Shown here: positions 1 through 3,000 of the stretch, in pieces | Numbering within the stretch: position 1 is the first letter of the stretch | How the letters are laid out: the number at the start of each line of letters is the position of its first letter | IMG/VR virus record: IMGVR_UViG_2671180656_000001 | DNA: 4,042 nucleotides | Strand: one strand, 5' to 3' | From: a virus | Lineage: Duplodnaviria; Heunggongvirae; Uroviricota; Caudoviricetes | Program-made: the position numbers

Positions 1-3000
1 TTTGGAAAGATGGTGAAGAAGGTGCTTATGCGATGGGTTATGAGGATGGGCGTGACAAAACGGTAATTGCAGTAATGAAAGCCATCAGGGCCGCAGGAAT
101 CAAAGAAAAGAATTTCGATTAAGCAAATATCACTTCAATAAATCGCTTTTAAGGCATCACAATCGCTCTGTAGCGAGGTAAACGCGTGCAAGGCATGCCA
201 ATAAGCAGCGAGAATGAAAAATGCGTCAGAATGCGTTTGAGGAGGTTTTAAGAAATGAGTACGATAGCTGAGCTTGTCAGGGCTAATTTTCGTGAAGAGT
301 TGGTGCGTTGGTATCGGTATCGTTCATCGTCCAGTTTGCCGCTTGATGAGTTGTATGAGCATTCACCTGCCGCACGACGCTATCCGCGTGACCGTGTTCT
401 TCGACGGTTGTTCAAACTCAACAATGAGTTTCAGCGCAACAGAATTATCCGGAGTCTGGATTTAAAGTGAAGGAGTGAGCATGAGCGACCTATCATTAAC
501 CCAGCCAAAGCTAAAAGAATGTCCGTTTTGCGGCGGTAATGCTCGTCTGTGGGTTGAGGCCGGAATAAATATTGATGTGTGGGGCTATGCAGAATGTGAC
601 CTCTGTGAAGCCAGGGTGGCATGGGCACCATCAGTTGCTGCGGCTACTGAAAAATGGAACCGGAGAGCAGGAGATGAAGCAAACCTTTCTGCTTCGCAAC
701 GAAGCAATCAGAAATAACGCCATAGACGCCATTCTCTCACTACCCATCGACGACAAGTCACCCCACGAAGTCCACGTTAAAGAACCCAAGCGCAGCAAAG
801 CGCAGAATGACCGTATGTGGCCGATGCTGAACGATGTTTCGCGTCAGGTGCTATGGCATGGTCAACGGCTGGCGCCGGAAGACTGGAAAGACCTGTTCAC
901 TGCCCTGTGGCTTAAGACCAAAAAACTGGAGCAACGAAGTGTGCCTGGTATCGACGGTGGCGTTGTCATGCTTGGCGTGCGTACCAGCAAAATGCGAAAG
1001 GCCAGCATGACTGAGCTTATCGAAATCATGTTCTGGTTCGGCTCAGAGCGCAACGTGCGGTGGAGTGATGACTCCCGGCGAGAGTATGAATGGTCACAAC
1101 GAAAAGGTAGGGCTGCATGACTATCAAATCAAATACGCCAGCACACGACAAGGACTGCTGGCAAACGCCGCTCTGGCTTTTTGATGCGCTGGATATTGAG
1201 TTTGGATTCTGGCTGGATTCAGCTGCGAGCGACAAAAACGCTCTGTGCGCTCACTGGCTAACTGAGGCTGACGACGCGCTAAATTCTGAGTGGATAAGCC
1301 ACGGTGCAATCTGGAATAACCCACCGTACAGCAATATCAGGCCGTGGGTGGAAAAAGCCGCTGAGCAGTGCATACAACAGCGACAGACGGTAGTTATGCT
1401 TGTGCCAGAGGATATGTCAGTCGGATGGTTCAGCAAGGCTCTGGAGAGTGTTGACGAAGTTCGCATCATCACTGATGGACGGATTAATTTTATCGAACCA
1501 TCGACAGGGCTGGAGAAGAAGGGAAACAGCAAAGGCTCCATGCTGCTGATTTGGCGACCGTTCATCAGTCCTCGACGGATGTTTACTACCGTATCCAAAG
1601 CGGCATTGATGGCGATCGGGCTGGGCGTCAGGAGGGCTGCATGAGGCGACAGCGACGAAGTATCACCGACATCATCTGCGAAAACTGCAAATACCTTCCA
1701 ACGAAACGCTCCAGAAATAAACGCAAGCCAATCCCAAAAGAATCTGACGTAAAAACCTTCAATTACACGGCTCACCTGTGGGATATCCGGTGGCTAAGAC
1801 ATCGTGCGAGGAAAACAAGGTGATTGACGTGATGATTTATTCGGGGCTATATTCCTCAAACGCCAGCAAAATCTGGCGTCGGGATTGGCGTCCTGGATAG
1901 AGACCGCGACAGATACACGCCGCGAGCGTGTTTTTTATTGTCGTATGCACGCGCACATCTGAATTATGGTGGGCTGTGTGGGGGCGGAGAGATCCGCGCC
2001 GGTCGGTTTCCCGGTTACGCCAACCCTGCACAGTTCACCACCAGACGATTGGCGTCGTCGGTGGTGAGTTATTAAGAAACCACCAGAGGGCGTCATTATG
2101 ACAACTCAAATTTCTGTTGAAACTCTCTCCCCGATCACCCATAACCAGATTCCTGTTATTACCACCGAACTTTTGGCGCAGCTTTACGGCACTGAGCCGG
2201 TGCGTATTCGCCAGAATCATCATGAGAACAAAGTACGCTTCGTTGAAGGGAAACACTTTTTCAAAGTTGTTGGTAATGACCTTAAAGAATTGCGGGTAGC
2301 TTTAAACTACTCACAAAATTTGCGGGTTACTTTAAGTAACTCACAAAATTTGCAAGTGTTCGAAAAACTGGAAGACTGCTATTTCAGCCAGTGCGAGAAA
2401 AATACTGGCAAACAAGAGAAGAAGCTCAACGGGCTTTCCGCAAAAGAAACAGACAGCCTTGTATGGCTGTGGGATTATGCCAACCGCTCACAGGCATTGT
2501 TCCGTGAGTTGTATCCCGCATTAAAACTGATTCAGTCTGGCTATTCCGGCATATGCCACGACTACGGCTATGAGTTCTCGTATATCATCGGGAGGGCGAG
2601 GGGCGTTTTAATTAATCACACGCGGGATATAGATATTTATGAGCCTGACGGGCCGACGAACCTTCTGGCATGGGAAAGGCTTAAGAACAAAGAGTTGCCG
2701 CCTTCACTGCATCGCTACTGACAATTGACAACTTAACAAACCCAGCTTCGGCTGGGTTTTTTATTGCTGAATTTTCAATGTGAGAGGACATGACAATGAA
2801 TGAGCTGATAAATAGCAATGCCATCAAAATGACAAGCATTGAAATCGCTGAGTTGGTGGGAAGCCAACACGGTAATGTCAGAATATCAATAGAACGTCTG
2901 GCAAAGCGTGGGGTGATTCAACTTCCTTCAATGCAAAAAGTTGAAAATAAACAAACAATTAGCCCTAACAAATTCACAAGCGTGTATATATTCGAAGGCG

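Follow-up and report, generated by a model that had tools for sequence, protein, structure and literature searches.

Introduction

Among the closest described counterparts of the gene examined here are Lar of the Rac prophage and Ral of lambda, two small type I restriction alleviators; to our knowledge, the mechanism of Lar-type restriction alleviation is still poorly understood. The gene is an open reading frame (ORF) at positions 255-470 of a 4,042-nucleotide (nt) stretch of DNA, hereafter called the window, from the Caudoviricetes virus record IMGVR_UViG_2671180656_000001. An earlier note on this DNA had described it as an arginine-rich ORF of 71 amino acids (aa), closely linked to the downstream gene lar and placed like a co-translated partner. 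We show here that this ORF is a real protein-coding gene under purifying selection, that it is a member of the catalogued family DUF7301 (PHROG 1785), and that it constitutes a mosaic module flanking a variable slot in which lar is the commonest, but optional, occupant.

Like Lar and Ral, the DUF7301 gene is a small early accessory gene of lambdoid phages, and it adjoins a Lar-family gene in two phage groups. It differs from Lar in that its product lacks the WN(R/T)R motif and is basic where Lar is acidic. Membership of the Lar family itself was considered and rejected: the 71-aa protein contains no cysteine and therefore no zinc ribbon, neither PF14354 nor TIGR03655 matches it at E <= 1, and it is the neighbouring ORF at 481-717 that is the Lar member. 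With the arginine-rich-motif RNA-binding peptides of the lambdoid N proteins, the DUF7301 protein has in common that it is small, arginine-rich, early and encoded by lambdoid phages, but its arginines are carried by a predicted folded hairpin and not by a disordered N-terminal arm. The identification as an N-type arginine-rich antiterminator was also discarded, as the protein has no match to the N families of Pfam and the gene is part of the pR/nin operon instead of opening pL. In a homologous prophage, a faint N-like gene distinct from the DUF7301 gene occupies its normal place.

Rop/Rom proteins, which are antiparallel hairpins that form dimeric four-helix bundles and bind nucleic acid, resemble the DUF7301 protein in size and in the predicted hairpin of two long helices; however, there is no sequence relation, and the DUF7301 protein has an extra short helix and a conserved loop between the long helices. 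Positionally, the gene corresponds to ninA, the small ORF with which the nin regions of P22 and phi24B begin: both are found past the replication genes and before ninB. ninA has 26 codons in P22 and 30 in phi24B and overlaps a tR2-type terminator in both phages. P22 NinA was ruled out as a DUF7301 homologue, its 26-codon ORF being unrelated, and phi24B, Dewey and Bas106 carry both genes, ninA coming first. Finally, nothing distinguishes the ORF of the window from the rest of the DUF7301 family, with which it shares size, core and an enterobacterial phage or prophage setting.

Results

The ORF belongs to the DUF7301 family

The 71-aa protein matches Pfam DUF7301 (PF23975) with E = 3.8e-26 and 91.5 bits, against a gathering cut-off of 27, over profile positions 1-64 of 65. 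A second match, to PHROG 1785, a family of "unknown function", has E = 2.1e-33 and covers 1-71 of 71, while NCBIfam has no model for the protein. In a scan of Pfam and PHROGs, all 39 diverse members of the family match DUF7301 and PHROG 1785 alone, and no second recurring family was found in them. As a member of DUF7301 / PHROG 1785, the protein is therefore not novel. The earlier note, which recognised no family and proposed a candidate novel protein, was mistaken on this point: the RefSeq annotation of E. coli already places a "DUF7301 family protein" between a "Lar family restriction alleviation protein" and a "recombination protein NinB", and a 100%-identical chromosomal region of E. coli carries the same label. 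The profile searches with hidden Markov models that the note had proposed thus gave an answer, DUF7301 and PHROG 1785; its proposed Foldseek searches yielded no informative match.

The gene is widespread. Proteins that are 100% identical are encoded in many records of Shiga toxin (Stx) phages, where they are annotated, if at all, as "hypothetical protein". Window-type DUF7301 is encoded in 183 phage-collection records, nearly all from Stx phages, and the 571-nt region around the gene matches 574 of 5,426 complete E. coli genomes. Counterparts of the ORF are ECs_1193 in Sakai and vb_24B_15 in phi24B. A comparative genomics paper on Stx phages mentions lar but not this ORF (PMC3430580). Beyond this type, when 1.84 billion representative proteins were searched exhaustively with a profile, 46 clusters at 50% identity were retrieved, and their named sources are Enterobacterales: Escherichia, Salmonella, Klebsiella, Rosenbergiella, Rahnella and an insect symbiont. 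No confirmed locus came from a profile scan of genome contigs with the DUF7301 alignment, and nothing from a scan of viral contigs with the family member P0067.

As identity drops to about 30%, the family keeps an N-terminal helix S-T-x-x-[EQD]-L-x-x-x-D-x-x-E, the pair R-Y at positions 21-22, a loop S-S-S-L-P-x-x-E...P and a core Y-[RP]-R-D-[RK]-V-[LM]-x-[RK]-[LI]. R45 is invariant in the alignment of 39 members, in which D46 and V48 reach 95% and position 47 is always R or K. The window protein carries these motifs, with YPRDRVL at 43-49 and STIAELVRANFRE at 2-14. The family is basic throughout, with a median isoelectric point (pI) of 10.4, R and K making up 23% of residues, and its conserved Arg/Lys positions falling between residues 33 and 51.

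Four viral contigs carry two divergent DUF7301 paralogues in the same operon, about 690 nt apart (3313-3534 and 4001-4216 in L056, L057 and L075; 3236-3457 and 3924-4139 in L076). The second paralogue begins MSTLADLIHADMAEDGARRNRYWKSSSLPVCERF..., and lar follows the window-type copy only.

The ORF is a gene under purifying selection

The complete ORF described by the earlier note is borne out. It runs on the + strand from an ATG at 255 to a TGA at 468-470, and its product contains 14 Arg (19.7%), 2 Lys and 9 Asp plus Glu, for a net charge of +7 and a pI of 10.8. Arginine clusters are present as RR at residues 41-42 and 50-51 and as RxR at 21-23, 45-47 and 61-63. The good Shine-Dalgarno (GGAGG, 9 nt before the ATG) and the 10-nt gap AGGAGTGAGC that separates the stop codon from the lar ATG at 481, and which contains the Shine-Dalgarno of lar, are likewise as described.

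Substitution patterns fit this reading frame. Comparison with the copy in phage Dewey, which is 56% identical, gives a ratio of nonsynonymous to synonymous rates (dN/dS) of 0.35, and comparison with a recombinant allele gives the same value. In more distant DUF7301 copies, synonymous sites are saturated while the motifs are still kept. Among near-identical copies (142 sampled), all 23 distinct alleles are open, the corresponding ratio of polymorphisms (pN/pS) is 0.39, and variable sites are mostly third positions. Indeed, Arg50 is conserved in these alleles through four different synonymous codons, and in 20 alleles codons 47, 48 and 50 undergo synonymous changes only. Of the findings that the earlier note would have counted against a gene, tolerated frame disruption did not occur in this sample, and dN/dS is well below 1 instead of near it.

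We also considered that the functional product might be the ORF at 274-465 in the +1 frame, which is fused to lar in 933W-type alleles, or that the region might act as an RNA. A 119-aa ORF is indeed annotated in the +1 frame of the 933W record, and this frame is open over 49-65 codons in six of the seven homologues tested. However, such openness is expected in 11-12% of synonymous reshuffles, and the Rosenbergiella homologue has ten stops in the +1 frame. The fusion to lar hangs on a single TAA/TTA polymorphism, and the 933W record has, in addition, an extra G in lar. Conservation at the level of the family, the Pfam model and the substitution pattern by codon position all fit the frame of 255-470. 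As to an RNA role, a search of window positions 1-720 against Rfam gave no match, folds of 120-300 and 405-510 were no better than those of shuffled sequences, and the leader fold test gave a z-score of +1.05. We therefore do not propose that RNA structure hides the ribosome-binding site of lar or couples the two genes. The +1-frame gene is thus effectively refuted, and we consider the chance that either of these products is the functional one to be negligible.

The 933W record (NC_000924.1) leaves the DUF7301 frame unannotated and has in its place the 119-aa "Lar-like" ORF, at 4038-4397, which corresponds to window positions 292 to about 650. This ORF can exist because TTA replaces TAA at window 463-465 and because lar carries the extra G, whether as a true frameshift or through an early sequencing error.

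A mosaic module beside a variable slot

The window is the nin region of an Stx-converting lambdoid phage: its first 1,200 bases match Stx1a- and Stx2-converting phages over their full length at 99.4-99.5%. In 933W and in the Sakai prophage Sp5, this block is part of the rightward early operon, downstream of cro, cII, O, P and ren and upstream of Q, with the annotated order pR-cro-cII-O-P-ren-...-DUF7301-lar-ninB. The DUF7301 gene thus stands at the start of the nin region, past the replication genes and ahead of ninB, and its description in the earlier note as an early-phage gene stands, as it is independently initiated and part of an early phage operon. The features of this part of the window are the following.

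3-122 (+): 3' end of a phiTE_015-family / PHROG 343 gene, stop codon at 120-122 (PHROG 343, E = 8.5e-08)
123-254 (+): intergenic leader of 132 nt, one of two alternative upstream contexts of the DUF7301 gene
241-245 (+): Shine-Dalgarno GGAGG of the DUF7301 gene, 9 nt before its ATG; left boundary of the mosaic module
255-470 (+): DUF7301 / PHROG 1785 gene, 71 aa, pI 10.8
274-465 (+): overlapping +1-frame ORF of 63 codons with a TTG start, judged a by-product of composition
381-410 (+): core YPRDRVLRRL, codons 43-52, the most conserved stretch of the family
471-484 (+): linker AGGAGTGAGCATGA, comprising the Shine-Dalgarno and start codon of lar; right boundary of the module
481-717 (+): lar, zinc-ribbon restriction-alleviation gene, 78 aa, pI 5.3 (PF14354, TIGR03655, PHROG 599)
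674-1120 (+): ninB, recombination mediator NinB/Orf (PF05772, E = 9.1e-49)

The identity of lar is given by its matches to PF14354 (E = 2.3e-09) and TIGR03655 (61 bits). The full-length homologue of the gene at 3-122 bears the RefSeq name "phiTE_015 family protein", PHROG 343 being a protein of unknown function.

Alignments to other phages, and the E. coli matches, begin at window position 241, at the Shine-Dalgarno, and end at the start codon of the next gene. The DUF7301 gene is therefore a self-contained mosaic module whose left edge is its own Shine-Dalgarno and whose right edge is the start codon of the following gene; recombination joints of this kind have long been described for lambdoid mosaics. 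On the left, two upstream contexts join the module at GGAGG-N-TTTAAGAAATG. One is the 132-nt leader of the window, in which a consensus scan detected no promoter-like or terminator-like site and in which no significant RNA structure was found. The other consists of a 30-codon ninA ORF with a tR2-like hairpin, GGCCTGC...GCAGGCC, followed by a T-run, which corresponds to the terminator annotated inside ninA of P22.

On the right, the gene that follows was tallied in 68 distinct contexts of window-type DUF7301 copies.

lar: 41 of 68 contexts
60-aa protein MSEQIFRE...: 12 of 68
small membrane protein MSRRSSFL..., then further genes: 6 of 68
68-aa protein MTNQQQIE...: 6 of 68
NinB/YbcN-type gene overlapping the stop codon: 3 of 68

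The slot directly downstream of DUF7301 is thus variable, lar being the commonest of at least five arrangements, and the DUF7301 gene is its stable flank. Searched against Pfam, none of the alternative downstream products was assigned to a family. The linker is identical in the four cassettes that begin with lar, MSEQIFRE..., MSRRSSFL... or MTNQQQIE..., and identity breaks 3-5 nt past the ATG. The tight spacing to lar, on which the earlier note had based its idea of a co-translated partner, is a shared linker at a recombination joint and is therefore not by itself evidence of a partnership. Beyond the slot, ninB is the usual next conserved gene, and it overlaps the end of lar by 44 nt (674-717), read in another frame.

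Two further observations concern the slot. A cassette encoding a 100-aa membrane-like protein, in L107, ends with ...ASQRSNQK, as does Lar, which places the right-hand recombination joint of the slot inside the lar/ninB overlap. In addition, a 143-aa protein (P0079, with 32 member sequences) is an in-frame fusion of DUF7301 with the cassette MTNQQQIE..., apparently by loss of the stop codon through a small indel in the linker; as it is found in many database sequences, this fusion seems to be tolerated.

lar adjoins the gene often, but not always

We counted the presence of lar over distinct contexts in a census based on tblastn. Among window-type copies (identity of 85% or more, mostly 97% or more), 42 of 69 contexts, or about 60%, have Lar next to DUF7301. 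Lar is never adjacent in the Dewey-type (0/21) and Klebsiella-lambdoid (0/20) contexts, that is in 0/41 for the two lineages together. The Rosenbergiella locus has its DUF7301 gene after a DnaB-like helicase and no adjacent Lar, and the same absence is seen in other single loci where the gene follows DUF551 genes, a DnaC-like loader or RdgC. Three metagenomic phage contigs carry DUF7301 outside the early operon (L090 5001-5237, L223 3001-3219 and L221 3001-3213); there the gene has no adjacent Lar and lies directly upstream of a P22 gp3-type small terminase or after a terminase pair. As neighbours differ among the lineages examined, the DUF7301 gene is tied neither to Lar nor to a particular module for replication, recombination or packaging, and the co-occurrence wherever either gene is found that an obligate two-gene module with Lar would display is not seen.

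The pair nevertheless recurs in a second group, the Skate-like siphophages of 46-48 kb, which include Salmonella phage Skate (Skatevirus), Klebsiella phages KP591P1 and ZCKP8, E. coli phage Bas81 and others (123 phage records). In these phages the DUF7301 gene belongs to a small rightward operon beside the lysis genes. We sampled 15 distinct loci, from isolated Klebsiella, Salmonella and E. coli phages and related metagenomic contigs, and in all 15 DUF7301 is followed by Lar (PF14354, E = 3.3e-10) with an overlap of 4-20 nt. Between the Stx lambdoids and the Skate-like phages, DUF7301 proteins are 33-43% identical and Lar proteins 35-37%. In every pair of both groups the charges are opposite, DUF7301 having a pI of 10.7-11.4 and Lar one of 4.3-6.3. 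Where a sampled flank holds a Lar gene, one always stands directly after DUF7301, a second copy lying further downstream in L204. The Lar allele of the window itself occurs in 119 phage records, all from E. coli or Stx-converting phages, and lar directly follows DUF7301 wherever the coordinates of both are listed.

The recurrence of DUF7301 with Lar in two unrelated groups is real evidence of more than coincidence, although vertical inheritance within each group and a possible block transfer weaken it. The linkage that the earlier note had asked to see conserved thus holds in most window-type and all sampled Skate-like loci, and fails in two lambdoid lineages.

Two side observations were made on the Skate-like phages. 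The RefSeq record of Klebsiella phage KP591P1 (NC_071147.1) has no annotation for a DUF7301 homologue at 4001-4237, gp52 stopping at 4004 and the Lar-like gp53 beginning at 4221 with a gap in between; sister phages have the gene annotated. The Skate-like Lar proteins (L203-L214 and L215-L218) have a conserved N-terminus MKPMMNDDGLLEC and a conserved C-terminus WNTRNGHLYTADDYKQDAMER..., with strong variation between and around the two Cys pairs, which looks like diversification of a specificity region.

Predicted structure of the DUF7301 protein

AlphaFold2 gave a mean confidence (predicted local distance difference test, pLDDT) of 71 with 13 close sequences, and of 83.4 with 39 diverse sequences, with a predicted template modelling score (pTM) of 0.51 and helices at 3-25, 30-35 and 45-69. 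The protein is thus predicted to be a long antiparallel helical hairpin with a short helix in the connection. On a helical wheel of helix 3, the hydrophobic residues 48, 49, 52, 53, 55 and 59 fall on one face, near 0 degrees, and the basic residues 47, 50, 51, 54 and 61 on the opposite face, at 140-240 degrees; this separation covers the first two-thirds of the helix. Helix 1 carries the conserved acidic residues D11 and E14.

The best match in a profile search of PDB sequences was eS30, at E = 1.2. Foldseek found nothing in the PDB with the first model, and nothing among the BFVD viral structures at E <= 0.001. Altogether, the fold, profile, Pfam and PHROGs searches detected no nucleic-acid-binding fold or family, the fold matches being generic only. 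The nucleic-acid binding that the earlier note suggested is compatible with the basic composition of the family as a whole. A relation to ribosomal protein bS21, considered for its equal length and charge and the weak eS30 match, was rejected, with an hhalign probability of 0.1% against an E. coli bS21 sequence entered by hand and no match to PF01165.

Other features of the window

The genes that follow ninB are listed below.

1117-1644: Dam-type methyltransferase
1641-1823: ninE
2098-2721 (+): ORF6N/P22_AR_C antirepressor-like gene
2790-3518: Rha/ANT (roi-type) gene
from about 3518: start of ninG

Between ninE and the antirepressor-like gene, at 1847-2045 (+), Rfam detects a control module of the antisense-RNA type. 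It comprises a c4 target a1/b1 at 1847-1899 (45.9 bits, just below the gathering score), isrK at 1860-1936 (74.7 bits) and a C4 antisense RNA at 1962-2045 (66.7 bits). The ORF6N/P22_AR_C gene follows the module directly, and a terminator-like site lies at 2738-2759. This layout, inside the nin region of an Stx phage, resembles the c4-ant immunity control of P1/P7 or the IsrK arrangement of Gifsy-1.

Discussion

The best explanation of these data is, in our opinion, that the DUF7301 gene, itself a mosaic module, encodes a delayed-early accessory protein that binds a polyanionic partner; we give it somewhat better than an even chance. As no promoter-like site was found upstream in the window and a tR2-like terminator lies just upstream in sister phages, the gene is most likely a delayed-early one whose transcription starts at pR and proceeds under N antitermination, and whose translation is driven by a strong ribosome-binding site of its own. 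In the predicted hairpin, D11 and E14 of helix 1 and R45-D46 at the start of helix 3 probably form a salt-bridge clasp. The protein is probably a dimer, as its hydrophobic surface exceeds what a two-helix hairpin needs. The basic stripe and the conserved loop (SSSLP..E..P) would then bind the polyanionic partner early in infection. This partner could be DNA, RNA or an acidic protein and, where lar is present, it could be Lar itself. Since many phages carry the gene alone, it presumably works without Lar too, and where lar is absent the protein must have another target.

Several points weigh against this proposal. One family member, P0008, has a pI of 5.8, owing to an acidic tail, and the window protein reads LYEHSPA at residues 33-39, where the family consensus is rich in R/K; more generally, basic charge alone is no proof of nucleic-acid binding. 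Expression from pR is deduced from gene order, and the dimer and the clasp were read from sequence patterns, not from coordinates. In addition, literature searches for DUF7301, vb_24B_15 and ECs1193 returned no papers on the family or these locus tags.

A more specific possibility is that DUF7301 is dedicated to Lar as its partner. Basic hairpin and acidic zinc ribbon would then be co-translated as a two-component restriction-alleviation module in which DUF7301 could chaperone Lar, regulate it or provide the DNA-targeting subunit. That DUF7301 precedes Lar in two unrelated groups, with a 10-nt gap in the Stx lambdoids and overlaps in the Skate-like phages, points in this direction, as do the opposite charges in every pair and the constant position of lar directly behind DUF7301, both in the sampled flanks with a Lar gene and in those records of the window Lar allele that list the two coordinates. 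The similar divergence of the two proteins between the groups also fits a long-maintained pair. However, about 40% of window-type contexts have an unrelated small gene or ninB in the place of lar while DUF7301 is intact, and the two genes are never adjacent in the Dewey-type, Klebsiella-lambdoid, Rosenbergiella, terminase-adjacent and other lineages examined. The Skate-like and lambdoid regions have a phiTE_015-like gene in common as well, so that the pair may have travelled in a block. Moreover, the Lar of the Rac prophage is reported to act alone (King and Murray 1995), and it is not known to be preceded by a gene of this kind. We thus regard a dedicated partnership as unlikely. A broader version, in which DUF7301 and Lar form an anti-restriction unit conserved from lambdoids to Skate-like phages, with DUF7301 targeting or controlling Lar (it might, for instance, recruit Lar to DNA or to the type I enzyme) and serving other cassettes in phages without lar, seems to us a little less probable still. 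As for the suggestion of the earlier note that the protein works with Lar, the pair does recur in every sampled Skate-like locus with opposite charges, whereas lar is dispensable as a neighbour in the lambdoids.

DUF7301 could also be a DNA-binding accessory protein associated with replication, recombination or packaging and not with anti-defence. Indeed, the gene is found directly after a DnaB-like helicase, a DnaC-like loader, or RdgC following O/P; it stands directly before ninB and, elsewhere, either immediately precedes the gene of a P22 gp3-type small terminase or comes right behind a terminase pair; and its basic amphipathic helix is compatible with DNA binding. Nonetheless, the neighbours change from almost every lineage to the next, as one would rather expect of an accessory gene, the searches described above turned up no fold that binds DNA, and the nin region of lambda is dispensable for growth, as the nin5 deletion indicates. 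We consider a role in such DNA transactions improbable. Finally, two small tandem genes, of which the upstream one is conserved and the downstream one variable, recall the layout of type II toxin-antitoxin systems, and DUF7301 might be an antitoxin-like or regulatory gene for the cassette that follows. Lar/RalR of Rac has been reported as a toxic DNase, and the window Lar gives a weak match to the RalR toxin model of NCBIfam; the in-frame fusion of DUF7301 to a different cassette in 32 database sequences can be read in the same sense. Yet this match, at 28.7 bits, is below the equivalog cut-off of 113, PADLOC gave no matches, and often no small effector precedes ninB or the terminase. DUF7301 is basic, not acidic, and has no ribbon-helix-helix (RHH), helix-turn-helix (HTH) or AbrB-type domain; neither a recognisable DNA-binding antitoxin domain nor a strict pairing with a downstream toxin is found. 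An antitoxin is hence very unlikely. A delayed-early accessory protein with a polyanionic partner remains our preferred explanation.

Altogether, the observations of the earlier note are confirmed and its interpretation is supported in part. The finding is in itself an ordinary one, as this is a catalogued gene in the heavily sequenced group of Stx phages, present in hundreds of genomes of E. coli O157 and other Shiga toxin-producing E. coli (STEC). Its most useful new points are the discrete mosaic module beside a variable slot and the recurrence of DUF7301 with Lar in Skate-like phages. Carriers with and without lar are at hand in the BASEL collection, Bas106 and Dewey lacking lar and Bas81 having it. 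While the partnership is clearly not obligatory, the recurring DUF7301-Lar pair offers a testable hypothesis for Lar-type restriction alleviation.

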